NCBI GenBank assembly: GCA_002310415.1
Contig: DBYN01000006.1
Span: 219,249-283,248 of the forward strand
Direction: 5' to 3'
From: Alphaproteobacteria bacterium UBA1185
GTDB lineage: Bacteria > Pseudomonadota > Alphaproteobacteria > Rs-D84
DNA length: 64,000 nucleotides
Translations under genes and position numbers: made by a program
Notes under the pieces: model-generated
What the model was told of the DNA's origin: nothing
Databases searched by the model: none
Seen by the model: the letters and a program-made list of their open reading frames with translations, nothing else
In this document: piece after piece, positions 822 to 51,042 of the stretch
How the letters are laid out: every line of letters starts with the position of its first letter
How positions within the stretch are numbered: position 1 is the first letter of the stretch

Positions 822-2482
822 AATTTAACATAGGACATGATGTTTTACCGCATGAATACAAAGGTACTGTATATAATCATGACAGTGTCGGGCGTTTGCG
901 TTTTTTGCGTGCGGCGTTTATGTTTGTTTTTGCTGTTTTTATTGTACGGACTTTGCAGTTGGGGTTGCAACATAGTTCTGGTCGATATGTTGGGGTAAAA
1001 AAACAAGAAATTGAACAACGTGCTGATATAGTGGATAGAAACGGTGTGGTGTTGGCAAAAAGTGTTAAATCTGGCAATATTAAATTGTATCCACAAAAAG
1101 TAAAAGAAACCCAAATAAATGATATTGCACGCTTGATTCACGAGATAGTTCCAATGGATTACAGTGTTACAGATGCTGTAAATTTGGTTAACTCTTGGAT
1201 TCGTTCTGGCAAAGAAGGTGTGTATGTAAAGAAAAGTGCCAATGAAGAGCAAATAAAACTTGTCAGAGAAGCAAGATATGACTGTTTAGATGTTGAAACG
1301 TTTACTGTGCGTCGATATCCGCAACGTAATGTATTCGCTCATGTTGTGGGCTTTGCTGGTAAAGACAAGGGACTGGAAGGTGCTGAATCTGTATATGATA
1401 AATATTTGCGTGAAAACAAAGACCCATTAAGGTTGTCCATAGATTCGCGTGTGCAAAATATATTTTATGAGCAATTAAGTATAGCGAAAAACAAATATAA
1501 TGCCAAATCTGCTTTGGGTATGTTGATGAATTCAACTACTGGTGAAATGATTGCTATGGTTCAATTACCAGATTTTGATCCGAATAACATAAAATTATCG
1601 CCACCCATAAATCGTCGATTTAAATTATTACGAGATAATTTTATAATGGGGTCTGTATTCAAAATATTTAATACTGTTTTGGCATATGAAAACGGTTTGC
1701 AGGATAAAGAATATAAAATTAATGAACCATTGATGATTCCGGACAAGTTTGGTCGTCCGGCTATGAAAAAGCCAATTGATGATGTTTCGTCTTTTAAACG
1801 TGATGTGATAAAGAAGAAGGGCATTACTAAATTAACTGCCCCAGATATAATGTTGTATTCTTGTAATGTAGGCAGTGCGAAAATTGCTTTGGAATTACCA
1901 GATAATGCACAACAAGAGTTTTTTCAAAGATTGCATTTTGATAAACCGTTAGAATTGGAATTTGGAAAAACAGAAGGTACGTTAATGCATAAAATTTGGG
2001 GACCTGTGGAGCGTGCAACCGCTGGCTTTGGACATGGAATTGCTGTTACACCAATGCATTTACTGTTGGCGGTTAATGCTGTTACAAATGGTGGTTTTTA
2101 TGTGTATCCGACTTTGTTAAAACGTGGAGTTGGTGCGATACGTGGCGAAAGAGTTGTTGATTCTGATATTTCTGCAAATATTCGTCAAATAATGTTTCAA
2201 ATAGCAGAACAAACAACTGCCAAAAGTGCGCGAGTCAAAGGAATAGAAATCGGTGGTAAAACAGGGACTGCTGAAAAACACATAAATGGGCAAATTGATA
2301 AAAGTAAAAATGTGGCGACTTTTGTGGGAATTTTTCCTGTATCTGCGCCACAATATGTTATCGTTGTTATGTTGGATGAACCTCAGGCAACAAAAGAAAC
2401 TGGTGGGTGGCATTCTTCGGCTTTGAATGCAGTACCAACGGCGGGTGCAATACTTGATGGAATCATGCCATTGCTATTTTAA
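818..2482 (+). CDS. ftsI: peptidoglycan D,D-transpeptidase FtsI (PBP3-type class B PBP)
   Basis: 554 aa with an N-terminal TM anchor. Transpeptidase motifs are SxxK (GSVFKI), SxN (YSCNVG) and KTG (GGKTGTAE). Confidence 0.9.
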   Translation: MKFNIGHDVLPHEYKGTVYNHDSVGRLRFLRAAFMFVFAVFIVRTLQLGLQHSSGRYVGVKKQEIEQRADIVDRNGVVLAKSVKSGNIKLYPQKVKETQINDIARLIHEIVPMDYSVTDAVNLVNSWIRSGKEGVYVKKSANEEQIKLVREARYDCLDVETFTVRRYPQRNVFAHVVGFAGKDKGLEGAESVYDKYLRENKDPLRLSIDSRVQNIFYEQLSIAKNKYNAKSALGMLMNSTTGEMIAMVQLPDFDPNNIKLSPPINRRFKLLRDNFIMGSVFKIFNTVLAYENGLQDKEYKINEPLMIPDKFGRPAMKKPIDDVSSFKRDVIKKKGITKLTAPDIMLYSCNVGSAKIALELPDNAQQEFFQRLHFDKPLELEFGKTEGTLMHKIWGPVERATAGFGHGIAVTPMHLLLAVNAVTNGGFYVYPTLLKRGVGAIRGERVVDSDISANIRQIMFQIAEQTTAKSARVKGIEIGGKTGTAEKHINGQIDKSKNVATFVGIFPVSAPQYVIVVMLDEPQATKETGGWHSSALNAVPTAGAILDGIMPLLF

Positions 2483-2532
2483 TATTTTTAGATTATAATA
2501 GTCCTGATAATAATAAAAAAAGAGAGTTAGGT

Positions 2533-4287
2533 GTGCGAAAGATAGTAGAAAAATCCATGCTTGGTAAGGTGTGGGTTGTGTCAGATGATTATTATAGAAA
2601 TAGTGATTCGGATGATGCCGAAAGTTTGGTCAAAGGCATTTTGAATTCACGTGGTATTATTGGTGATGACAATATAACCAGATTTCTTAACCCGTCTATC
2701 AGGGAATATATGCCAGATCCATTCGTGTTGAAAAATATGGATGTCGCGGTTGCTGTTATTGCTGATGCTGTTTGTGCGCATGACAAGATCGCTATATACG
2801 GTGATTACGATGTTGATGGAATAACGTCTACGGCGGTCTTTGTAAAATATTTGCGGGCATTGGGGTGCGATGTGTCGTGGCATTTGCCAACTCGCGAAGG
2901 TGAAGGATATGGGTTAAATGTTGATGCTGTAACTAAAATTGCAAATGATGGTGTTAAATTATTGATTACTGTGGATTGTGGTATCAGTGGTATAGAAGAG
3001 GTGGCGTGCGCAAAAAATTTAGGCATGAAAGTTGTTGTTACAGACCACCATTCGCCTGATATTGTTTTACCAGATGCAGATGCAATTGTGAATCCAAAAC
3101 AGGCGGATGATACGTCTGGATTGTGTTTTTTGGCGGGGGTCGGTGTTGCGTTTCTGACTTTGGTTGCATTAAATCGTGAATTGAAAAACAGAAATTTTTT
3201 TAATGATGAAAAAAATCAAATAAATTTATTGAATTATATGGATTTGGTTGCGCTGGGTACAATTTGTGATACGATGCCATTGATTGAATTAAATCGTGCT
3301 TTTGTTGCAACTGGATTAAAAGTAATGGGGTTGCAACAAAATCTTGGGTTAAAGACTTTAATGAATTTGGCTGGGATAAAACATCCATCTGTGTATGCAG
3401 CGGGGTTTGCTTTGGGACCACGTTTAAATGCAGCGGGACGGTTGGATTCTGCGGCACCTGCGTTGGAATTATTGTTAACAGATAATCCTTTGATTGCGAA
3501 TGATTTGGCTAATAAATTGCATAAAATGAATCAAGAAAGAATTGATATTCAAAATGCCATTATGATAGATGCAACAGAAAAAGCGGATTGTTATTGCAAA
3601 GATGGTAAATGCAGTTTATTTGTCTGTGGTGATAATTGGCATGGTGGTGTTATGGGGATTATTGCAGGCCGATTAAAAGATAAATATAATTTACCAACAT
3701 GTGTCGCGACACGTTGTGATGGTATGATAAATGGGTCGGGGCGGTCTATACCCGAAATTGATTTAGGTAAGATAATACATGATGGATTGGCTGCTGGAAT
3801 ATTGTCAGAAGGTGGTGGACATGCAGCAGCAGCAGGTTTTACGTTAAGTGCTGATAAAGAGGTTGAGTTTTGTGCTTTTTTGGAACAGGCTGTTAAAGAG
3901 CAATTAAATGGGGCTTGTCCAGTGCCGGAAATATTTGTGGATGCAGAAATGGATGCATCTGGTGCAAATATGCGGTTGGTTGAAAAATTGGCTGATTTGG
4001 CACCTTTTGGTCAATGTAATCCAGAACCTACATTGGTTTTGTATGGGGCAGTGTTAAAATTTGCAACTGTTATGGGTAATGGTATGCATTTGCGGGGGAT
4101 GGTAAAAACCGGTAATGGTACACAATTGTCTTTTGTTGGATTTAATTTGGTTGGAACACCTGTGGGTGATTTTTTACTGGACGAAGCGCATACAAACACT
4201 AAAATAACAATGTTGGGTAAATTAAAGGAAAACGAATATAATGGTCGCGTTAGTGCGCAATTTGTATTAGAAGACATGGTGATATGA
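2533..4287 (+). CDS. recJ: single-stranded-DNA-specific exonuclease RecJ
   Basis: 584 aa. DHH-family motifs are YGDYDVDG, ITVDCG, VVVTDHH and DHHA1 GGGHAAAAGF. GTG start at 2533; an alternative ATG lies at 2557. Confidence 0.9.
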   Translation: MRKIVEKSMLGKVWVVSDDYYRNSDSDDAESLVKGILNSRGIIGDDNITRFLNPSIREYMPDPFVLKNMDVAVAVIADAVCAHDKIAIYGDYDVDGITSTAVFVKYLRALGCDVSWHLPTREGEGYGLNVDAVTKIANDGVKLLITVDCGISGIEEVACAKNLGMKVVVTDHHSPDIVLPDADAIVNPKQADDTSGLCFLAGVGVAFLTLVALNRELKNRNFFNDEKNQINLLNYMDLVALGTICDTMPLIELNRAFVATGLKVMGLQQNLGLKTLMNLAGIKHPSVYAAGFALGPRLNAAGRLDSAAPALELLLTDNPLIANDLANKLHKMNQERIDIQNAIMIDATEKADCYCKDGKCSLFVCGDNWHGGVMGIIAGRLKDKYNLPTCVATRCDGMINGSGRSIPEIDLGKIIHDGLAAGILSEGGGHAAAAGFTLSADKEVEFCAFLEQAVKEQLNGACPVPEIFVDAEMDASGANMRLVEKLADLAPFGQCNPEPTLVLYGAVLKFATVMGNGMHLRGMVKTGNGTQLSFVGFNLVGTPVGDFLLDEAHTNTKITMLGKLKENEYNGRVSAQFVLEDMVI

Positions 4288-9198: not shown

Positions 9199-10563
9199 AT
9201 GAAAAAATATCTTGTTTTGACATCTGTGCTGGCTTTAACTGCATGTGGTGGTGGTTCTGGTAGTAGCGGGGCTGGTGCCGATGTAAATACGGTTGTTGTT
9301 CCTGGCGATTTGGCGGGGCGTGTTACTGCAACTGATAATGATGTGATTACAAAAATGAAATCTGAAGTTATTGTGGCATCTAATTCTGATAATCCTTTGT
9401 CACGTAAAGCGACGGTTGAAAAAGATGGTGTAACATTTGCTTCATACAGATTGGAAGATATCCAATTATATGCGGCAGATTTTGCACATACTGATAATGG
9501 TTTTTTACAAATAGGAATGGATGAAAATACTGGACGTATAGAAAATATAACGATGACTGTTGGTGGTACAGGCGCACCTGTTGCACGTGATGGCAATACG
9601 AATCGTTTCTTTGGACCAATTTTTGAATATGTTGAAAATGGCAAAGATCAGGCTGTATACAGAACTGCGAATACGGGGCAAACTGCCGAAGACTTGGCAC
9701 AATTAAAGGCTGATTTGATTGCACAGGGCAAAATACAAGATGGTGGTCATTGGAATATGATAAATGAATATATGGATGTTGTAACGTATGGGCGTGATAT
9801 TGGCAATGGCGAATCGTTGCAATATGCCGATTTTGGACATTTCAATCCTGTATATAAGCAAAAATATAAAAACGTAGATGGTTTATCAAATGACCAAATG
9901 GCTTCGGCGCGTCAAGGTAAAGATTTGGGGCGCGGTTCAGAATTAGATGAAAGAAAAACTGCAGAAGATTTTAATGATGAAATGGCAGCAGAAGATTATC
10001 AATTGTTTGCTGGGGGATATGCAATTAGTGGTGTAAAGTTGGAAAAATCGTTGCAGCCAAATAATAATACTACTTATCGTGGTATGGCAATTGGGCGTTT
10101 GTATACGACTGTGTCTGCGGATGATGGCGTTAATAATGATGTACGTGAAGCAAAAGCGACAGCGGCAGGTTACAGTGCGGATCGTGATATAAACAAAGCC
10201 TTTACAACCAAATCAGCAACAATGACTATTGGGGCAGATGGGACTCAAACACTTTACATGCCGTTTAATACACAAAGTGATAATCCAGACAGCAAGTTTT
10301 ACGATATAACTTTGGTTCAACACAAGGATGGAACACTAGACACCGAATTCACAGGAAATCCAACAGATCCGAAACATAATAAGGGACATGCTTTGGAATA
10401 TATTGTTGAAAATGAAAGTGGTGTTAATTTTGGATATTATGGTGTGAATACGCCATCTGAAGCCGCCGGAACTGCACGTTTGTATTCCGCAGAAGATTTG
10501 GGTGGTGGTGTTCAACGTGAATATGAAGTTCAGGGCGCATACGGTATGAAATTACAACATTAA
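9199..10563 (+). CDS. surface-lipoprotein candidate, TbpB/fHbp/HpuA-like (putative Slam substrate)
   Basis: Lipobox LALTAC followed by a Gly/Ser linker GGGSGSSGAG. The C-terminal region TYRGMAIG...NFGYYGVNTPSEAAGTARLYS...VQGAYGMKLQH resembles the terminal 8-strand barrel signature (GxFYGpxAxExaG...GAFGa) of TbpB-type lipoproteins. Confidence 0.65.
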   Translation: MKKYLVLTSVLALTACGGGSGSSGAGADVNTVVVPGDLAGRVTATDNDVITKMKSEVIVASNSDNPLSRKATVEKDGVTFASYRLEDIQLYAADFAHTDNGFLQIGMDENTGRIENITMTVGGTGAPVARDGNTNRFFGPIFEYVENGKDQAVYRTANTGQTAEDLAQLKADLIAQGKIQDGGHWNMINEYMDVVTYGRDIGNGESLQYADFGHFNPVYKQKYKNVDGLSNDQMASARQGKDLGRGSELDERKTAEDFNDEMAAEDYQLFAGGYAISGVKLEKSLQPNNNTTYRGMAIGRLYTTVSADDGVNNDVREAKATAAGYSADRDINKAFTTKSATMTIGADGTQTLYMPFNTQSDNPDSKFYDITLVQHKDGTLDTEFTGNPTDPKHNKGHALEYIVENESGVNFGYYGVNTPSEAAGTARLYSAEDLGGGVQREYEVQGAYGMKLQH

Positions 10564-10620: not shown

Positions 10621-10694
10621 TATAATTTTATCTTGTTATATCTTGTAAAAATTACTATCATAGGACACAAGTCTTAGTAATGTATGGTATTTTT

Positions 10695-12140
10695 ATGAAA
10701 CGTATGTTTTTATCTTTGTTGTTTGTTATTGTTTCTACGTTTTCTGGTTGGGCGGTCGGATCGGTCAGTGTGCAGAAAACGTCTGATAATTCTGGTGTAA
10801 CGGAAAAAAATGAAAAGCCGGCAAAGCAAGCAAAAAAAACGTCCAAAAAAAACGACAAAAATGGGAAAACAGAAATTACAATGACATCATTAGATGCCGT
10901 TAAATTGGCTGGCAAAATGGTTGAAATGGGTGATTATGAACACGCAACTCAGATTTTAACAAAAATGCCACAAACCAAAAGTTTGCCTGTGGAAATTGAA
11001 CGGTGGTATTTGTTGGCGCAAATGGAACAACGCAAAGGTAATTATGACGAAGCAATCAAAATTTATCGTAAAATATTAGATTCTCAACCAGATTTATCCA
11101 AAATTCGTTATGAATTAGCATTATGTTATATGGCAAAGGAACAATGGTATCGCGCAGATTATCATCTTCGTTTGGCTATGGCTGGAAAAGATATACCTGA
11201 ACCGGTTAAACAACGTATGATGTATTACAGGTATATTGCACGTAAAAACAAAAATTGGAATGTTTGGTTTAATTTTGGCGCTGCACCAGACAATAATATT
11301 AATCAGGCTACGGGCGGTCAAGAATGTATTTTTTATAATGGGTATTTTTATGGATGTGCTGATAACCCTGAACCTGAAAAGGCTGTGGGATATAATTTGT
11401 TGTTGGGCGGAAATTACGAATTTAAATTGTCTGATAATTGGCGTTGGAAGAATGATGCGAATATTTATACTAATGTTTATAATAAACATAAGTATGATGA
11501 TTTGTATTTAGCCGGTTCTACCGGTCCACGTTATGTTTGGGGAAATGGTGATGTTTGGTTGGCTGGTGTTCTAAGTCGGCGTTGGTATGGCTGGGATCGT
11601 TATAATTGGGCGTATGGCGCCAAGATTGATACTAATTATGATTTAACACGTAAATTGTCTTCTGGATTGACTTTGCGTGTAATGAATAATAAGTATGATG
11701 AATATTGGCAATTGTTAAATGGGCAGACATGGACATTTGCACCACGTTTTTCTTATTCCTTTGACGCATCGAAATATGTTGTGTTAAGAGGTGCGATTGA
11801 TCGTGAAACAGCAAAAGCGGATGCATATGCAAATTGGCGATATAATGCTGGATTGGGTTTTGGGGCCGAGTTGTTGTGGGGATTTAGTGTTTATTTAGAG
11901 CCTTCTTTTACATGGGTGAATTATGATGGCGAACGTTATGTTCCAAAAGATGGGGATTTAAAATGGGTTGTTGAAAATGATTTTATTCAACGTTATTCCA
12001 TATCTTTGTCTAATAATAAATTCAGTATTTGGGGTATGGTGCCGACTTTGACGTGTAGTTATACGAAAAAAGATTCTAATATTCACAACCGGCAATATGA
12101 AAAAGCCACTTTGGAATTAACTTTCCAACAAAGATTTTAA
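10695..12140 (+). CDS. Slam-like outer-membrane protein (N-terminal TPR + C-terminal DUF560-type beta-barrel)
   Basis: Signal peptide MKRMFLSLLFVIVSTFSGWA. TPR-like helices (WYLLAQMEQRKGNYDEAIKIYRKILDSQPD, YELALCYMAKEQWYRADYHL). An aromatic/Gly-rich beta-strand region ends SYTKKDSNIHNRQYEKATLELTFQQRF with a terminal Phe. At about 480 aa it matches the size of Neisseria Slam. An alternative start lies at 10680. Confidence 0.7.
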   Translation: MKRMFLSLLFVIVSTFSGWAVGSVSVQKTSDNSGVTEKNEKPAKQAKKTSKKNDKNGKTEITMTSLDAVKLAGKMVEMGDYEHATQILTKMPQTKSLPVEIERWYLLAQMEQRKGNYDEAIKIYRKILDSQPDLSKIRYELALCYMAKEQWYRADYHLRLAMAGKDIPEPVKQRMMYYRYIARKNKNWNVWFNFGAAPDNNINQATGGQECIFYNGYFYGCADNPEPEKAVGYNLLLGGNYEFKLSDNWRWKNDANIYTNVYNKHKYDDLYLAGSTGPRYVWGNGDVWLAGVLSRRWYGWDRYNWAYGAKIDTNYDLTRKLSSGLTLRVMNNKYDEYWQLLNGQTWTFAPRFSYSFDASKYVVLRGAIDRETAKADAYANWRYNAGLGFGAELLWGFSVYLEPSFTWVNYDGERYVPKDGDLKWVVENDFIQRYSISLSNNKFSIWGMVPTLTCSYTKKDSNIHNRQYEKATLELTFQQRF

Positions 12141-21206: not shown

Positions 21207-21557
21207 ATGAAAAAACATTACGAGAGTTATCGTGATTTCTATTTTGCAATTTGTGATGCAAAAACAACAAAAAAAATGCAAAAGGTTATTGATTCCTGTG
21301 AAAATATTGATGTAACAGGTAATAAATATGGTTTTACAGCATTGATGTGTGCGGTTTATTCTGCCAATAGGCAAGTGGCAAAACTACTTCTTGAAAATGG
21401 TGCAAATCCGGAAGCAAAGGATAGTGATGGCCAATCTGTTTTAGTTCTTGCCCCGCAAGGTGAGATTAAAGCGATGGTTTTAAGGGCTATTGTGACAAAA
21501 TATTGGCAAGAAAAACGTTCGGCGCGTATCAATAAATCCCGAGGTTTAGCAAGGTAA
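21207..21557 (+). CDS. ankyrin-repeat protein
   Basis: 116 aa. GFTALMCAVYSANRQVAKLLLENGANPEAKDSDGQSVL matches the ANK consensus (G-TaLh-A...G....v.lLl..GA..n..d). Confidence 0.75.
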   Translation: MKKHYESYRDFYFAICDAKTTKKMQKVIDSCENIDVTGNKYGFTALMCAVYSANRQVAKLLLENGANPEAKDSDGQSVLVLAPQGEIKAMVLRAIVTKYWQEKRSARINKSRGLAR

Positions 21558-26159: not shown

Positions 26160-26263
26160 GTTTTTGCCTTGATTTTTGTTTTACAAATCGCAGTATAACA
26201 TGTTTTATCGATTCGTGCGATTTTATCTTGATAATTTTTTTATGAAAATCGTATTTTTAAGTC

Positions 26264-26292
26264 TTGCACAGATTTGGTCAAATTGTTATAAT
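26264..26292 (+). promoter_or_regulatory. near-consensus sigma70-like promoter for the secretin cluster
   Basis: TTGCAC (26264-26269), 17-nt spacer, TATAAT (26287-26292). RBS AGGAAG precedes ATG 26325. Confidence 0.5.
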
Positions 26293-26324
26293 CAAATATA
26301 ATATATCAATAAAAGGAAGAAAAT

Positions 26325-27200
26325 ATGTTCCAAAAAATTTGTTTGTTTGCGACTTTGGCTTGTTTTTCTGGGGTTGCTTTTGGTGTTGAAAAATTGCCTC
26401 AGGTTGTTACATCTGAAGTATTTTATGAATATGAACCTGCACAGTATGCTGTTCAAGAAAAAGAAATTGTTACACAAAATCAGGTTACCCAGGTTCCTGT
26501 ATGGCCACTTGCTGGCTCGGACGCGGATTTTAAGATTGCTTGTGATGATATGGGGTGTGCGGACAATGTCGCACAGCCGGTTGTGGAATATGATTTTAAC
26601 GCAAGTGGTACTGGTTGGTCTGGTGGACCCGATATTGATAACGGTCGTCCTGTTCCGGCTGGGTTTGATAATGAATGTGAAAATAATGCGGAAATGCCAT
26701 TATTAAGACGCGAAATGTTGGAAGATGATGGTGGGGCGGTATTAGCCGTTTCGCGTAGTGCGCGTAAAAAATGTAACAAAAATTCGGATTCGTATGCTGT
26801 ATTTGCGGAACGTGCCGGTTTTGCAGCAGAAAAAACTTGTGATAAATCTGCTGTTGTTGACGAAGCCGAGATAGATGTTATGATTGATACAGATGAAAAG
26901 ATAAGTGAATCTAATGATGAACAGGCACCTGTGAATATTCGTAATCAAGTTCGTTCTTGGGTTGTTGCAAGTGGTCAAACGTTACGTCAGGTTTTACAGT
27001 CTTGGTGCGACAGGGAAGGTTGGGATTTGGTTTGGACTACATCGCGTGAATACCCTATAGAAGCCAGTGCGGTATTCAAAGGTCGCTTTGTGGATGTGGC
27101 ATCTGCGTTGGTTAGAAATTTTGAGCGTGCTACACCAATACCTTATGCGAAATTTTACAAAGGAAATCGTGTAATAGTTGTTTCAACATCGGAAGAATAA
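26325..27200 (+). CDS. TcpQ/PilL-like secretin-associated protein (C-terminal TcpQ-type domain)
   Basis: Signal peptide MFQKICLFATLACFSGVAFG. The C-terminal SWVVASGQTLRQVLQSWCDREGWDLVWTTSREYPIEASAVFKGRFVDVASALVRNF...KFYKGNRVIVV matches my recollection of the TcpQ domain pattern (W-v--G-tL---L--W----GW-lvW ... f-G-f--Av--L ... y-gN-vlvV). Confidence 0.6.
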   Translation: MFQKICLFATLACFSGVAFGVEKLPQVVTSEVFYEYEPAQYAVQEKEIVTQNQVTQVPVWPLAGSDADFKIACDDMGCADNVAQPVVEYDFNASGTGWSGGPDIDNGRPVPAGFDNECENNAEMPLLRREMLEDDGGAVLAVSRSARKKCNKNSDSYAVFAERAGFAAEKTCDKSAVVDEAEIDVMIDTDEKISESNDEQAPVNIRNQVRSWVVASGQTLRQVLQSWCDREGWDLVWTTSREYPIEASAVFKGRFVDVASALVRNFERATPIPYAKFYKGNRVIVVSTSEE

Positions 27201-27223
27201 TTATCATTTGGGACTTGTAGGAG

Positions 27224-28858
27224 ATGAAGATGAAAATGCGTTTGAAAATGTTTTTAACGGGTTTGTTGATGATGGGGGCGTTGGCGGGTTGCACTTTGCA
27301 AGAATCTGCCAAGGTGTCGGCATCTGTTGATCAAAACTTTGTAAAAGCATATGAAGCATTTGAAATGGCGAAAAATCCGCGTGCCAAGGTTGCTAGTGGT
27401 GATACGGTTTCTGTATCAGAAGGTGTTTGGTTGGGTAATAAATCTACGGTTTTGGAACATAAAAATACGTTGCCTGCTAAATTTGAAACTGATACAGGAA
27501 TTACGATTTTATTGAACGAGCCAGTAACGTTACAGGTTTTGGCAAATGATATAAATTCTATTACCGGTATTCCTGTCAAGATAGATAACCAGGTCGATTC
27601 GGAAAAGTTAAGAAAGACAGTTGATGTTGCGTATACTGGAAAGTTATCTGGTCTGTTGTCGCAAATTGCAACTGATTTAGATTTGTTGTGGTATTATGAC
27701 AAAGATGCGATTGTATTTTATGAAACAGAAACGCGGACATATACATTATATGCGCTGGGTACGGATGTATCATATCAATCTTCGGTTCAAACAGACGATG
27801 GAAATCAGGTTTCTTTGGAATCCACATTAAAAGAATGGGATGAAGTTGAATCAACAATAAGTTCAATTGTTAATTCATCTAAAAATTCTCAATTTACTGT
27901 TTCACGTAGTTTAGGAACAATCACAGTAACTGCATCGCCATCTGTGTTAAACAGGGTTGCGGAATATATTGCAAAACAGAACAAACGCTTGTCTCAGTTG
28001 GTAACCATAGATGTCAAAGTGTTACAAGTGTCTTTGTCTAATGAATCTGCATTTGGGTTGAATTTGGCGGCTGCGATTAATTCTGCATCTGGATTGAATA
28101 TAGTTGCAAATCCAAAAAATAATTTAGCGACCACAGAAGCAAGTTCTATGAATGTTGCTGTTTTATCTAATACAGTTTCGGCTTTGACAGGTGCAACACA
28201 TGGTGATGGATTAGAAGGTGCGTATACAAACGATCAAATTATGAATGGTTCTATGGCACGTGTGGCGGGAACAAATGCTTTGATAGAGGCTTTGGCAAAA
28301 CAAGGTAAGGTTTCTTTGGTGACAAATGTTGGTGTTACAACACGTAACAATCGTGTTGCACCCGTAACAAATACCAGAACAACTGGATACATAAAACGGT
28401 TTGAATCGCGTAATTTTACAACTGTTGAATCCAGTACGGTTGACCAAGATAATTTGGAAACAGGTTTTTCAATGCAATTGTTGCCTAACGTTTTGGAAAA
28501 CGGCAAGATTTTATTGTTGTTCAAAATGTCTATTCGTGAATTGTTAAGAATGTCAACTCAGACGATTGGTGATCAAATGAAAGTAACACTGCAATTACCA
28601 GAAGTAGAAGAACGTTCGTTTATGCAAGAAGTTATTATGGAATCTGGTCAAATGTTGGTAGTATCTGGATTTGAAAAGCAAAAGAATAATGATACACGTT
28701 ATGGTTTGGGGGATCCTGATTTTATGGCGTTGTCTGGGTCGCGTGAAACAGCAGCATCACGTGAAGTGTTGGTTGTTATTTTGACGCCTCAGGTTTTGGT
28801 TAGCCCGATGGATGCAGAACGTAATATTCAACAACATTGGGGCGCACCATTAAATTAA
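27224..28858 (+). CDS. lipoprotein secretin, type IVb PilN/TcpC-like
   Basis: Lipobox GALAGC. The secretin C-domain features are VTIDVKVLQVSLSNESAFGLNL, ...QMLVVSGFEKQKNND... and GLGDPDFMALSGSRETAASREVLVVILTPQVL. Confidence 0.75.
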   Translation: MKMKMRLKMFLTGLLMMGALAGCTLQESAKVSASVDQNFVKAYEAFEMAKNPRAKVASGDTVSVSEGVWLGNKSTVLEHKNTLPAKFETDTGITILLNEPVTLQVLANDINSITGIPVKIDNQVDSEKLRKTVDVAYTGKLSGLLSQIATDLDLLWYYDKDAIVFYETETRTYTLYALGTDVSYQSSVQTDDGNQVSLESTLKEWDEVESTISSIVNSSKNSQFTVSRSLGTITVTASPSVLNRVAEYIAKQNKRLSQLVTIDVKVLQVSLSNESAFGLNLAAAINSASGLNIVANPKNNLATTEASSMNVAVLSNTVSALTGATHGDGLEGAYTNDQIMNGSMARVAGTNALIEALAKQGKVSLVTNVGVTTRNNRVAPVTNTRTTGYIKRFESRNFTTVESSTVDQDNLETGFSMQLLPNVLENGKILLLFKMSIRELLRMSTQTIGDQMKVTLQLPEVEERSFMQEVIMESGQMLVVSGFEKQKNNDTRYGLGDPDFMALSGSRETAASREVLVVILTPQVLVSPMDAERNIQQHWGAPLN

Positions 28859-28948
28859 AATATAATTATACAAAAACAAAGATGCGCAAAAATTATGAGT
28901 AGGTATGCAAAAGTACATGAACATGCTGGAAATCGCAGAAACCTATAC

Positions 28949-30316
28949 ATGCAATCAAAGCGTTGTCTGATGGTTTTGGTTTTTGTGATGGGGTTGCATA
29001 ATATCGCTTTGGCTGCAAGTTGGGACTATCCATGTGAAGCAGTTAAATGTGGACCTGGATCGTATTTCTCAAGTAGTGACAATAGATGTAAAAAATGCAC
29101 AGAAGTTAAAGATACAGAGTTACAATCAGTTGGTGTAACAAAGGATATGTTGTGGTGTCCAGGGTATATGAGTGATTGTAATGATAAAAAGAATGGTTTA
29201 CATACGTGTGAGTCTTATATAAGAAATTATGATGACAACTATGAATGGTTTTTGGAAAATAATAACACGGACGAAGGTTGGAAAGAATTTACAACAGAAG
29301 TGGCTTGGTCACCCACAGTACAACAAAACCAGGAAAGAGAGGATTATCGTGATGAGGTTGTTGGTGTCAAATATGTTGCAGATGCCCTTAATGATTACAA
29401 AAAGTGTAAATTAACCGAGGTGCATTGTAAACCAGGGTACTATTTGCCAAAAAACACTGATAAATGTGAATTTTGTTCAAATGAATTCAGGAAATATTGT
29501 CCAGGTGGTTGGTATGAAGTAGAACAATCCAAAGATCAAGGCGTGTATGATTGTGATGCTTCAAAAATAACTGGTAGGTATCATACTGCATGTGTGTCTT
29601 GTCCGGATGGTATGCGAGCCAACTCGAATGAGGACAAGTTTATTTGGTATGATGTTATGATTAATGGTTCAAAGGCGGACTCATCAGATAGAGCGTTACG
29701 AAATATAGCTTGTATCAATAATAATGGATATGGTAAACATTATAAAGTTGAGTGTGGTAATGAGTTATCTAGTGACCCTGATTATAACAAGAAAAATGGT
29801 ATTTGGGGGTTGTGTGAAGAAGAAATTGGAGTGGCATCGTTACCTATCCAAAAGCAACATATTGAGATGGATAGAGTATATTTAAATGACAACTCAATCG
29901 TCGGTATAGAAATAAAAACATTCCCTGGTTCTGTGTACTATAACGGTACATATGTAAAATGTGCGGATTATCCAGAATTTGCAAAGGTGGCCAAAGAAGC
30001 ACGCATGTATTGCCCAGGAAATTGGGTAACAAAGGATGCAAATGGCAATTATCCAACCCCATTACAACAAATGAAACAATGCCCACCCAAAAAAGAGCCG
30101 AATGATGATTTATCCGGTTGTGAATGTATGTGGAAAGATAAGGGAGCCACAGAAACACCTGAGGGTGAGTGTATTCATAAAGAATTAAAATTGGGATATA
30201 AAGATTTATATTACGGACCATTTTGCAAAGATGATCCGACATGTCCATTGTTTAAACAATGTTGGACCAAGTTTAATAACAAAGCAGCATACAGAAAATG
30301 TATGGGCTTTGATTAA
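28949..30316 (+). CDS. secreted cysteine-rich protein with furin/TNFR-like repeats
   Basis: Signal peptide MQSKRCLMVLVFVMGLHNIALA from ATG 28949; the track ORF starts at 28895. I count 28 Cys in the mature part. Repeats are KCGPGSYFSSSDNRCKKC, HCKPGYYLPKNTDKCEFC, YCPGGWY, YCPGNWV and WCPGYMSDC. Confidence 0.6.
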   Translation: MQSKRCLMVLVFVMGLHNIALAASWDYPCEAVKCGPGSYFSSSDNRCKKCTEVKDTELQSVGVTKDMLWCPGYMSDCNDKKNGLHTCESYIRNYDDNYEWFLENNNTDEGWKEFTTEVAWSPTVQQNQEREDYRDEVVGVKYVADALNDYKKCKLTEVHCKPGYYLPKNTDKCEFCSNEFRKYCPGGWYEVEQSKDQGVYDCDASKITGRYHTACVSCPDGMRANSNEDKFIWYDVMINGSKADSSDRALRNIACINNNGYGKHYKVECGNELSSDPDYNKKNGIWGLCEEEIGVASLPIQKQHIEMDRVYLNDNSIVGIEIKTFPGSVYYNGTYVKCADYPEFAKVAKEARMYCPGNWVTKDANGNYPTPLQQMKQCPPKKEPNDDLSGCECMWKDKGATETPEGECIHKELKLGYKDLYYGPFCKDDPTCPLFKQCWTKFNNKAAYRKCMGFD

Positions 30317-30461: not shown

Positions 30462-30722
30462 TTATGCGATTTTTGCAATTTTCTTTGCCAGACGAGCAAC
30501 TTTACGTGAAGCGGTTTTCTTTGGCATTGTTTTGCCAGCTGCTTTCATAATTTTGCTTTCTGCATTGCGCGCAGCTGCAATTGCAGCGACTTTGTCACCA
30601 GATTCAATCGCGCTTAATGCTTTTTTGGTTGCAGTTTTAACAGCACTACGACGTGCTGTGTTAATCGCATTTTTCTTTGTTGTTACTAAGATTCTTTTAT
30701 CACATGATTTATGATTTGCCAC
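30462..30722 (-). CDS. rpsT: 30S ribosomal protein S20
   Basis: 86 aa, basic. MANHKSCDKRILVTTKKN...ARRSAVKT is typical of bS20. Confidence 0.9.
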   Translation of the reverse strand: MANHKSCDKRILVTTKKNAINTARRSAVKTATKKALSAIESGDKVAAIAAARNAESKIMKAAGKTMPKKTASRKVARLAKKIAKIA

Positions 30723-32877: not shown

Positions 32878-32941
32878 TTATTTAGAAATTTAATTTTTTG
32901 CTTTTCAGGGATTGCAGATTTGTTCTACAATCCCTTTTGAT

Positions 32942-33952
32942 ATGAACGATATTTTGCAAAAACTTTTTATTCTAAGAAGTCCAAAAATTGGCCCAGCGAA
33001 ATATAACGCTTTGTTGACCGAATATGGTGATGTTGAATCTGTGGTCGATTCTTTACATTTATCAACAGATTTTATGGATGATGTTAAAAGGGAAATCGAT
33101 AATGCGTATAGTTTGGGAATTGAATACATAGACGATACCGATCTGCGATATCCAAAAAATTTATTAAAAATAAAAAATCATCCAATTGTTATTACTGCGC
33201 GAGGTAATGTTGATACTTTGAATAAAAAAACTGTGGCAATGGTTGGAACGCGACATTCGACTGCGGGTGGTATGGAATTTATGGCAGATATGGCACAGTC
33301 TTTTGCGGAACATAATTTTGCTGTTGTTTCTGGTATGGCAATGGGAACAGATACAGCAGCGCATATTGGTGCTTTGCGGGCTTGTGGAAATACTCAAACT
33401 ATTGCAGTTCTTGCTGGTGGGGTTGATTATATCTGGCCACTGGAAAACGAATCGCTTTATTATGAAATATTAGACAGGGGTGTTGTAATAAGTGAATTAC
33501 CAGTTGGTATGCAACCAACAGCACAAAATTTTGTTTTACGAAATCGTTGGGTTGCTGGTTTGTCTGATTTTTTAATTTTGGGTGAAGCAGATTTAAAATC
33601 AGGCAGTATGACAACGGCGCGATTCGCTTTGGATTATGAACGGCGCGTATTTGCAGTGCCTGGACATCCTTCCGATTCGCGTAGTGTTGGTCCAAATTCA
33701 TTAATAAAAAATGGTGAGGCGACGTTATGTATGTCTGTGAAAGATTTCTTTGATGATGATAAGAAACAAAAAAATAATAAAATTAATAAATATGAAAATG
33801 ATATTTTAGATAAAATAGGAATAATTCCTGTGTCAGAATCTGTATTGGCAAGTCTTGTCAAAAAAAGTGTTTCGGAAATCAAGACTGATTTGGTGGTCTT
33901 GGAATTACAAGGTTTAATAAGGAAACAAGATGGTGGCTATGTTTTAAATTAA
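32942..33952 (+). CDS. dprA: DNA-processing protein DprA (Smf)
   Basis: VAMVGTRHSTAGG, SGMAMGTDTAAH and VLRNRWVAGLS motifs, plus a C-terminal winged-helix-like tail. Confidence 0.85.
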   Translation: MNDILQKLFILRSPKIGPAKYNALLTEYGDVESVVDSLHLSTDFMDDVKREIDNAYSLGIEYIDDTDLRYPKNLLKIKNHPIVITARGNVDTLNKKTVAMVGTRHSTAGGMEFMADMAQSFAEHNFAVVSGMAMGTDTAAHIGALRACGNTQTIAVLAGGVDYIWPLENESLYYEILDRGVVISELPVGMQPTAQNFVLRNRWVAGLSDFLILGEADLKSGSMTTARFALDYERRVFAVPGHPSDSRSVGPNSLIKNGEATLCMSVKDFFDDDKKQKNNKINKYENDILDKIGIIPVSESVLASLVKKSVSEIKTDLVVLELQGLIRKQDGGYVLN

Positions 33953-35672: not shown

Positions 35673-37217
35673 ATGAAAACGCTGGAACCCGCAGAACTCT
35701 ACACACACACACACACACACACACAACTAAAGCGTTGCCTGGCATTTTTATTTTCTGCGGTCTTGTTTGTTTCGTCTGCGTTTAGTACAACTCTTCCATC
35801 TGGTTATACGGAATTAGAATACATTGAATCAACAGGAACGCAATATATTGATACTGATTTTGTATATGATAATAACACCAGGGTTGTTTGGGATATACAA
35901 TTAACAGCACAAATTCCTTCATCTGAAAGTAATAATTCTGGTGTTGGATGGGTTAATAATGATTATGAAAAATTGGGTTTTACAATTAATAAAGATGATT
36001 CAATGTTACGTGTATACAAAGCATTTGCGGCTGAAGCAAATCCCGCTGGAGATACAAGACTTGCCACAATTCAAGTACATAATAATCGTCATGTAATAGA
36101 AATAAATTCACCTATAAACAAAGCATATGTAGATGGTGTTGAATATACATTTGATCCTGCAGTAGGTGATATAAATAATGACTATAATTTAACATTACCT
36201 TTATTTGCTTGGTTAGGCGGGACGGGATATAGACAATATTTTATAGGAAGAATGTATTCTGTAAAAATTTATGACAATGGAACACTAGCAAGAAATATGA
36301 TACCTGCTAAACGCAATTCTGATAATGCTGTAGGTATGTATGATACCATAAATGATGTATTTTATACCAATTCTGGCACAGGAAGTTTTACAGCAGGTCC
36401 AGAAATAACACTTCCAGAATACATACCGTTGGAGTATATTGAAAGCAGTGGAACACAGTATATATGTCTTAATTTTGGTTTTGATAAAACAGACGAAATA
36501 GAAACTGAATTTTCTATTCAAGACACTGATGTTTGTAACAAATATATGGTTGGTACAACAAGCTGGAACACCAATAACAATAGATTTGGAATGGGAGAAC
36601 ATTGTTGGGATTCCACATATAATTTTGCTTATGGTTCTGCTGACAATAGGAATACAAGTTTGTCGCCGCACAGAAGTTTGGACGGACAAATTCATAGATG
36701 GTTTTACAAAGATCTTGTAGTTTCTATTCCAGAACTTTCTACAAGTTTGGATGTTTCGGGTATAACTTTTGGTGGAACCACTACGAACTTGCGGTTGTTT
36801 TACGGCGGGATTAATGGTAGTGTGACAACAGGCAAGATGAAGTATTATAAACATATTAAAAACGGAACAGTTGTGTTTAATGGTATTCCAGCTAAAAGAA
36901 AATCTGATAATGTAGTTGGATTATATGATTTAGTTGGTGATACATTTTATACTAATTCAGGTACAGGTGATTTTATAGCGGGACCTGAAGTAGTAGACAG
37001 TACATGTACAAGTGCAACAGTTATGGGTGAAAATGTCTGTTTAATAGATACAGAACCAAATGGAGATTATATAAATGTCAGATATAATAATGAACAATAT
37101 TATTTAATGCTGGATTCAGAAAATGACTATCCAATACATGTTGGTTCAAGTAATAAATTAAAAATAATAACAAATACCGCTACCTATAACGTTCATGATG
37201 CATCAGTTGTGGAATAA
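35673..37217 (+). CDS. secreted two-module lectin/tail-fibre-like protein, putatively phase-variable
   Basis: 514 aa reading M-K-T-L-E-P-A-E-L-Y-(TH)3-T-Q, then signal peptide LKRCLAFLFSAVLFVSSAFS. Two homologous modules span aa 41-244 and 247-440. Each starts LP..Y..LEYIES(T/S)GTQYI and ends IPAKR.SDN.VG.YD...D.FYTNSGTG.F.AGPE. Confidence 0.7.
   Translation: MKTLEPAELYTHTHTHTQLKRCLAFLFSAVLFVSSAFSTTLPSGYTELEYIESTGTQYIDTDFVYDNNTRVVWDIQLTAQIPSSESNNSGVGWVNNDYEKLGFTINKDDSMLRVYKAFAAEANPAGDTRLATIQVHNNRHVIEINSPINKAYVDGVEYTFDPAVGDINNDYNLTLPLFAWLGGTGYRQYFIGRMYSVKIYDNGTLARNMIPAKRNSDNAVGMYDTINDVFYTNSGTGSFTAGPEITLPEYIPLEYIESSGTQYICLNFGFDKTDEIETEFSIQDTDVCNKYMVGTTSWNTNNNRFGMGEHCWDSTYNFAYGSADNRNTSLSPHRSLDGQIHRWFYKDLVVSIPELSTSLDVSGITFGGTTTNLRLFYGGINGSVTTGKMKYYKHIKNGTVVFNGIPAKRKSDNVVGLYDLVGDTFYTNSGTGDFIAGPEVVDSTCTSATVMGENVCLIDTEPNGDYINVRYNNEQYYLMLDSENDYPIHVGSSNKLKIITNTATYNVHDASVVE
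35701..35724. repeat. perfect (AC)12 dinucleotide microsatellite inside the 5' coding region
   Basis: Read directly: ctct-(ac)12-aactaa. It lies between ATG 35673 and the signal-peptide codons. Confidence 0.98.
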
Positions 37218-42647: not shown

Positions 42648-43109
42648 ATGAAACAAGAATCTGGACGTTCAATGATAGAAATGATAGGTGTATTGGCCAT
42701 TATGGCTGTTATAACAGCGGGTGCATTTGTGCTTATTTCTACGGCTTTTCATACCCAGAAACGCAGTCGTGTAACTGATGATGTGGCAAGCATTGTGTCG
42801 GGTGTGCGTAGTTTGTTGGGCGAATATGATGATTTTTCTAATATAGATAATTCTACTATTTTTGGTGCAATAGCAGTTAGCAATAAAAATCCATATGGTG
42901 GCACGTATGAATTGGCTGTTGATACCGCCAATCCTCGTCAGTTTATTGTTAGTATAAATGGTTTATCTAAATCTGATTGTGAGGGTTTGATTACCAAAGC
43001 ATGGACTGATTCGGTTGGTTATACAACATCTAATCGTAAAGAAAGTGGTGCGACTGGTAAATGTTTGGACGGCAATAATAATATTGTGTCTATTACGTAT
43101 GGCGAATAA
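42648..43109 (+). CDS. type IV pilin-like protein (prepilin-type N-terminus)
   Basis: MKQESG|RSMIEMIGVLAIMAVITAGAFVLI has a short basic leader, Gly at -1, Glu at +5 and a hydrophobic helix. A C-terminal Cys pair (SDCEGL...GKCLDG) is present; 153 aa. Confidence 0.7.
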   Translation: MKQESGRSMIEMIGVLAIMAVITAGAFVLISTAFHTQKRSRVTDDVASIVSGVRSLLGEYDDFSNIDNSTIFGAIAVSNKNPYGGTYELAVDTANPRQFIVSINGLSKSDCEGLITKAWTDSVGYTTSNRKESGATGKCLDGNNNIVSITYGE

Positions 43110-50076: not shown

Positions 50077-50102
50077 AACGGTGCGTTTGCACCGTTTTTT
50101 TT
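50077..50102. terminator. bidirectional terminator (efp / aldolase convergent)
   Basis: AACGGTGC-GTTT-GCACCGTT followed by T8. Overlaps the stop codon of the minus-strand gene. Confidence 0.7.
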
Positions 50103-51042
50103 ACGCTTTGTTTGATGAACCCATAATATTTTTTATTTCATCTATACAATTTTGAGTCATTGCGTTCATTGCAGTCGTTAAATATTCTCGTGGGTTGATA
50201 ATGTTGGGGTACTTTGCCAGAGTTTCCCGAATACTTGATGTAAAAGCAAGTCGCGAATCGCTGTCTATGTTTATTTTTGTTATATGTAAAGTAATTGCTT
50301 GACGTAATTGGGCAGGGCTTATTCCGCGCGCAAAACTTATATCCCCCCCGAATTTATTTATTTTGGTTATGAATTTTTGTGGTATAGTAGATGCTCCATG
50401 TAAAACCAATGGAATTTTAGGAATATTTGTTGCGATTTGTTTTAGAATATCAAAGCGTAATTTTTCGTTTTCGTTTTTTCTTTTATAAAGACCATGCGAT
50501 GTTCCAATTGCGATAGCCAACGAATCGGTTTGTGTTTGTTTAACAAAATCGGCAACGATTTCTGGGTTAGTATAAGATTGTTTTTTGGTAAAAGTGCGTT
50601 CGTCTTCGATTCCAGCCAATACGCCAAGTTCTGTTTCCACAGACACGTTGAATTTGTGTGCATAATCTGTGATTTTTTTTGAAAGTTTTATATTTTCAGA
50701 TAAATGTAACGCGCTGCCGTCAAACATAACAGATGAAAACCCCGAATCTATGGCATGTTTACAAGATTCAAAACTATGCCCATGGTCCAAGTGTAGCGCA
50801 ACTTGATTTTTTTTGTATTTTGCGCCCCTAATCATACCCATTAAAATATCTGGTGTCATATATTCCAGTGCCGATTCGGACACTGCTAAAATAACTGGGC
50901 TATTTGTTTGTTCTGCGGCATTTAATATCGCGTTTAACGTTTCCATATTATAAAAATTAAAGGCAGGAACGGCATACCCGTTGTTTAATGCCCGTGTCAA
51001 TAAGTGCTTTGTATTTGTTAAACCAAAATCAGAATAGTGCAT
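50101..51042 (-). CDS. class II ketose-bisphosphate aldolase (fructose/tagatose-bisphosphate aldolase family)
   Basis: 313 aa with VPAFNFYN, LHLDHGHS and VLHGAS motifs. Confidence 0.85.
   Translation of the reverse strand: MHYSDFGLTNTKHLLTRALNNGYAVPAFNFYNMETLNAILNAAEQTNSPVILAVSESALEYMTPDILMGMIRGAKYKKNQVALHLDHGHSFESCKHAIDSGFSSVMFDGSALHLSENIKLSKKITDYAHKFNVSVETELGVLAGIEDERTFTKKQSYTNPEIVADFVKQTQTDSLAIAIGTSHGLYKRKNENEKLRFDILKQIATNIPKIPLVLHGASTIPQKFITKINKFGGDISFARGISPAQLRQAITLHITKINIDSDSRLAFTSSIRETLAKYPNIINPREYLTTAMNAMTQNCIDEIKNIMGSSNKA

Follow-up and report, generated by a model that had tools for sequence, protein, structure and literature searches.

A TcpQ-domain protein and a lipoprotein secretin beside rpsT

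In the window (the whole 64-kb stretch of DNA analysed here), a gene for a TcpQ-domain protein is followed after a gap of 23 nt by a gene for a lipoprotein secretin. The original prediction had placed both genes correctly, and both are intact among the window ORFs. The pair, its neighbours and a pilin gene further downstream are arranged as follows:

26264..26292, + strand: promoter of the pair (TTGCAC at 26264-26269, 17-nt spacer, TATAAT at 26287-26292, TGn extended -10)
26325..27200, + strand: BfpG/TcpQ-type secretin partner, 291 aa
27224..28858, + strand: BfpB/PilN-type lipoprotein secretin, 544 aa
28895..30316, + strand: variable-slot gene, Cys-rich secreted protein
30462-30722, - strand: rpsT
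32912-33952: dprA
42648..43109, + strand: type IV pilin, 153 aa, probable fibre subunit

The neighbours are those described originally, namely a Cys-rich secreted ORF, rpsT on the minus strand, dprA and a single pilin-like gene at 42648-43109. The reported lack of assembly genes in cis was confirmed as well, with no T2SSE ATPase, T2SSF platform protein or A24 peptidase among the ORFs of the 64-kb window.

Contigs of up to 0.93 Mb from Alphaproteobacteria MAGs and Ca. Enterousia carry the closest homologues (82-94% identical), and the window itself derives from Candidatus Enterousia, a gut alphaproteobacterium of the order Rs-D84 with a genome of <1 Mb. Published Enterousia genomes measure 0.75-1.0 Mb, and Rs-D84 bacteria are described as missing standard transporters and possibly dependent on partners; the published survey of Rs-D84/Enterousia genomes assigned type IV pili only to a different lineage. 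The neighbourhood of the pair (gatCAB, sufBC, rpsT, plsY, dprA, dnaA) recurs in dozens of species, and the GC content and GC skew of the pair agree with those of its surroundings. We rejected the proximity of dprA as evidence of competence because the gene order there is conserved housekeeping synteny. At its end, the window contains an integrase-like ORF.

The first gene was predicted to end in a TcpQ domain, and it does: Pfam TcpQ (PF10671) matches residues 210-287 (nt 26952-27185) with 67.2 bits against a cut-off of 27 (E 1.3e-18). Residues 204-290 also match BfpG (E 5.4e-15), chain R of the secretin complex BfpB-BfpG of the EPEC bundle-forming pilus (BFP; PDB 9u5s; Nat Commun 2025, PMC12531336), with the beta-5 segments of the two proteins aligned as (I)KFYNGN to (A)KFYKGN. 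A type I signal peptide (residues 1-20) and an acidic N-terminal region (residues ~21-205) precede the C-terminal TcpQ domain. The N-terminal region evolves fast (dN/dS ~0.2), against ~0.02-0.06 for the TcpQ domain. The signal peptide is of type I and its N-terminal Cys lacks conservation across species, which rules out a lipoprotein. Of the label 'TcpQ/PilL-like' given to it originally, the TcpQ part therefore stands, while the likeness to PilL does not, the protein being closer to the non-lipoproteins BfpG and TcpQ.

The second gene encodes a lipoprotein secretin, as proposed. Pfam Secretin (PF00263) matches residues 356-525 (nt 28289-28798) with 48.1 bits against a cut-off of 27.5, so that both domains named in the original prediction score above their profile cut-offs. 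The best NCBIfam match, to the PilN-family type IVb outer-membrane protein TIGR02520, reaches 256.3 bits and falls short of the equivalog cut-off of 287.65 bits; the protein is therefore a divergent relative and not a PilN equivalog. Other NCBIfam models score far under their cut-offs (MshL, 105.6 versus 250.2 bits; SctC, 32.7 versus 238.45 bits). BfpB (9u5s_A) matches the secretin over residues 128-525 (E 3.8e-40), with a further match over residues 35-119, and the region of the secretin domain aligns to BfpB 143-528 (E 7e-31).

Domains follow in the order LG-like, N0, N3 and secretin. An LAGC lipobox lies behind a hydrophobic signal sequence, with acylation predicted at Cys23 (nt 27290-27292), a residue that does not vary across 16 homologues or across 23 close ones. 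The LG-domain-like N-terminus (residues ~35-119) aligns to BfpB 14-97, and within it V68-W69-L70-G71 (nt 27425-27436) aligns to BfpB I46-Y47-I48-G49, which is required for BfpG binding (PMC12531336). The W, L and G of this motif are invariant in the 16 homologues, down to 33% identity. The interface motifs are kept, and the partner may ring the secretin in a fixed ratio, as in BfpBG, where it is 17:17. There is no C-terminal S-domain, with 19 residues remaining after the secretin domain. An insertion of ~30 aa precedes the secretin domain relative to the nearest non-Enterousia relatives, and the region of the extra N3 beta-barrel hairpin of BfpB (Tyr198-Val235) can be aligned, though its loop is shorter. 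An AlphaFold2 monomer of the secretin, built on a shallow alignment of 82-95% identical sequences, has a mean pLDDT of 42 and is confident in N0 alone. The dN/dS of the secretin is 0.03-0.08 at dS ~1, and purifying selection on the pair is strong.

The near-consensus promoter upstream of the pair had been taken as an argument against a dead locus. Its sites are present, but a match to the consensus by itself is no better than chance (22 promoter-like sites in the region versus 18.7 expected). However, a 30-nt block, CTTGCACAGATTYGGTCAARTTGWTATAAT, is identical in eight species whose secretins are 83-92% identical, while the flanking intergenic DNA diverges. Promoter and ribosome-binding site are both conserved.

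A pilin gene and a variable slot downstream of the pair

The pilin gene, 14 kb downstream of the pair, is the sole ORF in the window with a class-III signal. Its product has a six-residue leader (MKQESG) followed by RSMIE, with Gly at -1 and Glu at +5, a hydrophobic N-terminal helix, two C-terminal Cys and 147 mature residues. Pfam N_methyl matches it weakly (17.5 bits, under the cut-off), as does EPEC BfpA in a phmmer search (E 3.7e-7). Orthologues that are 58-63% identical lie at other positions in two relatives (L042 and L022), and the leader is short in these proteins, with 6 aa here and 11 aa in L022. The long leader and large subunit of classical type IVb pilins are both lacking. The protein belongs to the type IV pilins without being a classical type IVb pilin, and its small size and short leader make it more type IVa-like.

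The Cys-rich ORF directly downstream of the secretin probably starts at the ATG at 28949, which yields a signal peptide; from there, the protein has 455 aa with 6.4% Cys and repeated CxPGxY motifs. It has no Pfam or NCBIfam match, and no homologue was found in ~175 related loci, even at E 10. In relatives, secretin and rpsT are separated either by <130 bp or by unrelated genes of 0.4-4.4 kb, and the products of several of these genes also have 5-10% Cys. Because this slot is hypervariable and often empty, the Cys-rich gene is not part of the secretin module. Export of its product, one of the functions first suggested for the pair, is not supported, since none of the relatives has a homologue of the gene and about one third of species have nothing in the slot.

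An ancestral six-gene operon broken in the Enterousia clade

To place the pair in an evolutionary context, we scanned loci for secretin homologues with an alignment of six sequences. The TcpQ gene adjoins the secretin gene in all 80 related loci. In sister lineages, with secretins 37-63% identical, the gene order is TcpQ, secretin, PilO/BfpC, PilP-like, ATPase, platform; in L050 (secretin 63% identical), all six genes are adjacent. Of 16 more distant species, 13 have an ATPase gene, a platform gene or both next to the pair; the exceptions are L013, L021 and L006. In the Enterousia clade (secretin at least 69% identical), the pair stands alone beside rpsT, and none of 62 species has an ATPase or platform gene flanking it, with at least 5 kb of downstream sequence present in 48 of the 62.

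The remaining genes are found elsewhere on the chromosome. In close relatives, genes for PilO, PilP-like, ATPase and platform proteins, the motor half of the operon, sit between lpxC and gyrB. A metagenome scan linked the ATPase on the same contig to a close relative of the window: on Ga0265301_10000015 (293,723 bp; secretin 92% identical), which shares the gatB-to-dnaA synteny of the window, the pair lies at ~45.4-47.9 kb and the ATPase at 174.3-175.9 kb, 129 kb apart. This ATPase is flanked by lipoprotein, PilO, PilP-like and platform genes, in an operon without a secretin. The same arrangement of pair and ATPase is seen on JAKSTC010000001.1 (secretin 74% identical), at ~42.5-44.9 kb and 191.9-193.5 kb, respectively, a separation of 148 kb. 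The motor half is collinear in 80 of 80 metagenomic ATPase loci, and where at least 4 kb upstream of pilO is available, a secretin lies near it in one of 38 loci, at a distance of 7.3 kb. Its proteins match PAP_PilO, T2SSE and T2SSF, and the PilP family with 29.3 bits, under the cut-off of 34.65; phmmer matches reach E 1e-96 for BfpD and E 1e-58 for BfpE.

Searches for further components used phmmer, with a lytic transglycosylase also among the queries. BfpP and a plasmid A24 peptidase found no A24 prepilin peptidase in the window or in ~175 related loci (~20 kb per genome), and BfpF and BfpH-L found no retraction ATPase or minor pilins in the same ~175 loci; with so little sequence per genome, the absence of peptidase and retraction ATPase carries little weight. 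Conserved ORFs of 189 and 104 aa beside the motor half were considered as peptidase or pilins and rejected: of their products, one is soluble and the other a small lipoprotein, with no family match for either.

The ancestral six-gene operon has thus been broken between the secretin and pilO genes in the Enterousia clade. The pair looks like a stand-alone module, as it was first described, only because this lineage has split its pilus operon; the secretin-less motor operons 129 and 148 kb away on the same contigs contradict that description. What survives is the proposal that the pair works with components encoded elsewhere, which is supported by the motor half at lpxC-gyrB in relatives and by the six-gene operon in sister lineages. 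A pilus operon lacking its own secretin elsewhere in the genome is the situation that the original prediction equated with simple operon scattering; such operons are present in relatives, and the case is judged to be scattering of the ordinary sort. We infer from these relatives, the closest with a 92% identical secretin, that the genome of the window also carries the motor half.

Relation to known pili and function of the pair

Among characterized systems, the bundle-forming pilus is closely similar. BfpB and BfpG are likewise encoded by a two-gene unit in the same order, the small TcpQ-fold partner before the lipoprotein secretin, and both proteins of the pair match their respective chains in 9u5s (E 5e-15 and 4e-40). 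Conservation extends to the N-terminal lipobox, the LG-domain region and the partner-binding motif (hydrophobic-aromatic-hydrophobic-Gly), and the two complexes also share a secretin without an S-domain and a partner that is not a lipoprotein. The operon of the sister lineages runs collinear with the BFP genes in the order G-B-C-U-D-E. Unlike BFP, which resides on a virulence plasmid, the Enterousia pair lies on the chromosome, in a genome of <1 Mb, and is passed on vertically; identity is only ~26%, the break in the operon falls between the secretin and the bfpC/pilO-like gene, the partner has an extra acidic, fast-evolving N-terminal region of ~185 aa relative to BfpG, and no bfpF-, bfpP- or bfpH-L-like genes were seen near the pair.

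The thin pilus of the IncI1 plasmid R64 offers a second parallel with PilL-PilN: the PilN family is the top NCBIfam match (256 bits, below the equivalog cut-off), the motor-half genes match PAP_PilO and the PilP family, and the R64 order L-N-O-P-Q-R, also annotated at a plasmid locus, is collinear with the ancestral operon. R64 PilL is a lipoprotein, unlike the first protein of the Enterousia pair. The pair also differs from R64 in lying off conjugative elements, with no shufflon or PilV adhesin nearby. TcpC-TcpQ of the Vibrio cholerae toxin-coregulated pilus (TCP) is again a lipoprotein secretin with a TcpQ-family periplasmic partner, the latter being needed for secretin stability (PMC12531336); the likeness to TcpC rests on the Pfam TcpQ domain and on the homology stated in that paper. 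The TCP genes, unlike those of Enterousia, are in one island, with the exported TcpF included. The scattering of secretin, motor and pilin loci, together with the short pilin leader, recalls type IVa systems, in which pilMNOPQ lies apart from pilBCD and pilA. However, the proteins are of the type IVb lineage (lipoprotein secretin with TcpQ partner, PilO/BfpC, PilP), and there is no PilMNOP or PilF pilotin.

We consider it very likely that the pair forms the outer-membrane portion of a type IVb pilus machine of the BFP/R64-thin-pilus kind, one that is encoded on the chromosome and inherited vertically. By homology to BfpB-BfpG, the secretin would be lipidated at Cys23, delivered to the outer membrane through the Lol pathway and assembled into multimers that form a gated channel. 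The TcpQ-domain protein would bind the V-W-L-G motif in the N-terminal LG domain of the secretin and act as a hoop round the N3 ring, steadying the multimer. A fibre of the 42648 pilin may be polymerised at the inner membrane by the PilO/BfpC-like, PilP-like, BfpD-like ATPase and BfpE-like platform proteins and leave through the secretin channel. In its position beside rpsT, the pair now has a conserved promoter of its own.

A different reading is that the pair has been repurposed as a channel independent of pili, for export of the downstream protein or for uptake of DNA or nutrients, and that its separation from the motor half reflects functional uncoupling. Its own conserved promoter, its physical distance from the ATPase half in 62 species, the frequent secreted, Cys-rich proteins in the downstream slot and the lack of standard transporters in Rs-D84, which may rely on partners, would all be compatible with such a change. 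Type IVb systems also have soluble export substrates, such as TcpF and CofJ. However, the assembly half is intact and collinear across the clade, which would not be expected if the channel no longer served assembly, and the downstream gene is not conserved, being absent in about one third of species. Separate secretin and motor loci are moreover normal for type IVa pili, and no secretin is known to function in the absence of an inner-membrane motor. Repurposing is thus distinctly improbable.

An origin from a horizontally acquired conjugative type IVb module (R64 thin-pilus-like) of an integrated element, as opposed to the core chromosome, is less probable still. The PilN family is the top NCBIfam match, and 2,465 of 2,884 plasmid matches are on plasmids typed as conjugative; one relative carries VirB3 and VirB4 genes ~7 kb from the ATPase half, and the integrase-like ORF at the end of the window could be counted in the same direction. 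Yet the pair keeps the same housekeeping neighbourhood in dozens of species, matches its surroundings in GC content and skew, is only 26-30% identical to plasmid PilN or BfpB, has no adjacent relaxase or transfer genes, and diverges along with its lineage. The possibility raised originally of a channel left over from a lost pilus operon and now in decay appeals to the missing assembly genes in cis and to the highly reduced genome, and we regard it as extremely unlikely. It is rejected because all 62 sampled species keep the pair intact, with full-length reading frames, and dN/dS is 0.03-0.08 for the secretin (dS ~1); the low value for the TcpQ domain (0.02-0.06), the conserved promoter and ribosome-binding site and the retention of the partner half-operon likewise speak against decay.

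The secretin is hence no orphan in a new role; with its partner it forms a textbook pair whose operon was cut in two by genome rearrangement. The added value is taxonomic and modest: a BFP/R64-like type IVb machine is conserved in at least 62 Enterousia-clade species and relatives, and what is new, in a minor way, is the presence of a type IVb pilus in Rs-D84 bacteria. We infer a putative role in adhesion to host or partner cells, and a strongly conserved pilus in ~0.9-Mb, non-respiring, transporter-poor bacteria is a reasonable candidate for the contact with partner or host that the survey authors proposed. It is more doubtful whether the pilus might be the main organelle of auxotrophic, transporter-poor Enterousia for attaching to a host or partner cell and taking material from it, with the slot proteins as strain-specific cargo or tip adhesins (compare TcpF and CofJ), an unlikely idea that, if true, would explain why a genome of <1 Mb keeps this machine under very strong purifying selection.

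The secretin pair and its match to BfpB-BfpG

The pair consists of two intact ORFs separated by 23 nucleotides, listed here with two further genes of the window.

26325-27200, + strand: TcpQ-domain protein gene, 291 aa, intact
27224-28858, + strand: secretin gene, 544 aa, intact
28895-30316: Cys-rich ORF downstream of the secretin; start probably at 28949, giving a 455-aa product
42648-43109: type IV pilin gene, apart from the pair; class III signal (G, then RSMIE with Glu at +5)

Profile searches confirmed both domains, with TcpQ at residues 210-287 of the first protein (67.2 bits versus a Pfam cut-off of 27) and Secretin at residues 356-525 of the second (48.1 bits versus 27.5). The PilN family of type IVb outer-membrane proteins, also named in the original prediction, is the top NCBIfam match of the secretin, with MshL and SctC scoring far lower, but its 256 bits fall just below the equivalog cut-off of 287.65. 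The secretin lipobox is L-A-G-C, with a Cys invariant across homologues, and the protein lacks an S-domain, as only 19 residues remain after the Secretin domain. The first protein begins with a type I signal peptide and is not a lipoprotein, because its single N-terminal Cys varies between species; BfpG is also a non-lipoprotein.

Of all PDB sequences, the secretin hit just one, BfpB in entry 9u5s (E = 3.8e-40), and the TcpQ-domain protein had a single significant match (E = 5.4e-15), to the BfpB partner in that entry, a chain of 114 residues. The structure shows the secretin complex of the EPEC bundle-forming pilus (BFP), with BfpB and BfpG in a 17:17 ratio; in it, the N-terminal LG domain of BfpB brings the acylated Cys to the outer membrane, and linker residues I46, Y47 and I48 of the BfpG-binding region are required for function (PMC12531336). 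Residues 35-119 of the window secretin align to BfpB 14-97, covering the LG/BfpG-binding region, and place V68-W69-L70-G71 on I46-Y47-I48-G49; all 16 homologues compared, the most distant at 33% identity, keep the W, L and G. In the partner, AKFYKGN is aligned with the beta-5 segment IKFYNGN of BfpG. Relative to known type IVb secretin-partner pairs, the window pair is fairly divergent (26-30% identical). By homology, the lipidated secretin would form an outer-membrane channel, the TcpQ-domain protein would hoop its N3 region via the conserved V-W-L-G segment, and the channel would pass a fibre built by PilO, PilP-like, ATPase and platform proteins encoded elsewhere. The multimer stoichiometry of the window pair, and the use to which the pilus would be put, we likewise infer.

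Secretins of the Enterousia clade carry a ~30-residue insertion (…LSNTVSALTGATHGDGLEGAYTNDQIMNGS…) at residues ~300-340, just ahead of the Secretin domain, that is missing from 41-43% identical relatives and from BfpB. The secretin model from AlphaFold2 was of too low quality to be informative.

One operon in sister lineages, two halves in the Enterousia clade

No match to a T2SSE ATPase, a T2SSF platform protein or an A24 peptidase was found in any other ORF of the 64-kb window. The remaining genes are housekeeping (a penicillin-binding protein, recJ, lolA, tatC, gatCAB, sufBC, rpsT, plsY, dprA, dnaA, dnaJ, uvrC, dnaN, tolB, lepA), including a 654-aa GyrB-family subunit that is probably parE. 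With both domains confirmed and such surroundings, the original description of the gene identities and window content was accurate.

Gut and rumen MAGs named "Alphaproteobacteria bacterium" and Candidatus Enterousia contain the nearest secretins (82-94% identical); the contigs that carry them reach 0.93 Mb. According to a published survey, Enterousia (order Rs-D84) genomes span 0.75-1.0 Mb and lack the TCA cycle and respiration; dependence on partners has been proposed in published work, and type IV pili were reported in the survey solely for another lineage. A small new point is therefore the conserved type IVb pilus encoded by Rs-D84/Enterousia bacteria.

Scanning a single genome for each GTDB species gave 80 loci with secretin relatives, whose six-frame ORFs were searched with BFP proteins and a plasmid PilN operon. 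Across 62 Enterousia-clade species (secretin at least 69% identical to that of the window), no ATPase or platform gene occurs in the flanks of the pair, which extend at least 5 kb downstream in 48 species and at least 5 kb upstream in 54. The nearest sister locus, L050 (secretin 63% identical), has a six-gene operon between rpsD and gyrB: TcpQ protein, secretin, 422-aa PilO/BfpC-like protein, 227-aa coiled-coil protein, 552-aa ATPase and 364-aa platform protein. The third gene was confirmed as PAP_PilO in L052, another sister locus. An ATPase and/or platform gene also adjoins the pair in 13 of 16 more distant species (secretin 37-46% identical); the exceptions are L013 and L021, each with less than 3 kb of downstream sequence, and L006, with no ATPase within its 10 kb. 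As the sister operon is collinear with both bfpG-B-C-U-D-E and the plasmid PilN operon, the single operon is, by parsimony, the ancestral state and the lone pair derived.

The other half was found with the L050 ATPase as query, which shares 71-76% identity with over 120 protein clusters from MAGs of these kinds. Its order, collinear in 80/80 metagenomic ATPase loci, is PAP_PilO (416 aa), a coiled-coil protein (217-225 aa; weak PilP-family match, 29.3 bits versus a cut-off of 34.65), T2SSE (540 aa) and T2SSF (356 aa), then gyrB, with a constant upstream context of DUF374, lpxK, lpxC and a 104-aa lipoprotein. Two contigs carry both halves far apart. On JAKSTC010000001.1 (198,610 bp; secretin 74% identical), the pair lies beside rpsT at ~42.5-44.9 kb and the ATPase at 191.9-193.5 kb. 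On JGI Ga0265301_10000015 (293,723 bp), which shares the gatB-to-dnaA order of the window and whose secretin (P0013) is 92% identical, the pair is at ~45.4-47.9 kb and the ATPase at 174.3-175.9 kb, surrounded by the lipoprotein, PilO, PilP-like and platform genes. The halves are only 7.3 kb apart in the rumen contig L108, with lpxK, lpxC and others between, so the distance varies within the clade. Close relatives thus keep both halves on one chromosome, and the second half is presumably present in the window's own genome. Prepilin peptidase, retraction ATPase and minor pilins were not found in about 175 related loci (~20 kb per genome). In one Enterousia-clade genome (L086), the half-operon with the pilus ATPase is preceded, at a distance of ~7 kb, by VirB3 and VirB4 type IV secretion genes (724-3422).

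The original proposal of a stand-alone module is contradicted by the single operon in sisters and by the secretin-less half-operon on the same contig in close relatives; the type IVb pilus system is scattered, the case that the proposal itself had named as speaking against it. Its alternative, that the pair works with components encoded elsewhere, agrees with the two contigs carrying both halves. [quoted passage not shown]

Selection, promoter and the downstream slot

Another alternative, that the pair is a remnant, is countered by purifying selection. Against five relatives with usable dS (~1.0-1.4), dN/dS is 0.03-0.08 for the secretin and, in the first protein, ~0.02-0.06 for the TcpQ domain and ~0.2 for the N-terminal extension. 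A 30-nucleotide block with TTGCAC, a 17-nucleotide spacer and TGnTATAAT is identical in eight species, the ribosome-binding site being conserved alongside it and the adjacent intergenic DNA diverged. The promoter had been cited against a dead locus; that argument stands on conservation, while the bare consensus match is not above chance in AT-rich window DNA. The pair is functional. A second conserved block at 26203-26229 (TTTATCGATTCGTGCGATTTT), ~35 nucleotides upstream of the -35 element and invariant in most of the eight aligned species, could act as an operator or drive the divergent 178-aa/sufBC genes as their promoter.

Export of the downstream Cys-rich protein had also been suggested, but its ORF has no homologue in any related locus, and rpsT directly follows the secretin (gap ~70-130 bp) in about one third of species. 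Others have 0.4-4.4 kb of unrelated genes there; these often encode secreted proteins with 5-10% Cys and CxPGxY-type repeats (several cases), and one relative has trypsin-like genes. From the window and related loci L001-L083 and L180, this hypervariable interval is a slot outside the module.

The pilin and other window genes

The pilin has a weak BfpA match and a short leader not typical of type IVb pilins; its orthologues in other species are located at other positions. Its predicted +1 residue is Arg (G, then RSMIEM), which is unusual among type IV pilins and is kept in the L042 and L022 orthologues.

A 454-aa lipoprotein without family match (9199-10563; LTAC-GGGSGSSG) is encoded directly upstream of a Slam outer-membrane protein (10680-12140; SlipAM and TPR_Slam), the usual layout of a Slam-dependent surface lipoprotein pair. 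ORF 35673-37217, for a 514-aa secreted protein without family match, contains a perfect (AC)12.5 repeat at 35701-35725, in the 5' part of the coding sequence and immediately ahead of the hydrophobic core of the signal peptide; it resembles a phase-variation switch of the slipped-strand type. At the window end, after lepA, ORF 62752-63765 has the N-terminal and central domains of a phage integrase and may be where an integrated element begins or ends. The - strand at 50101-51042 encodes a class II fructose-bisphosphate aldolase domain with a strong match (311 bits), in contrast to the published Rs-D84 survey, which reported genomes without this enzyme. A small ankyrin-repeat protein (21207-21557) has an orthologue with Ank_2 matches in L180, where two such genes occur; the motif is eukaryote-like, and the bacterium is suspected of depending on a host or partner.
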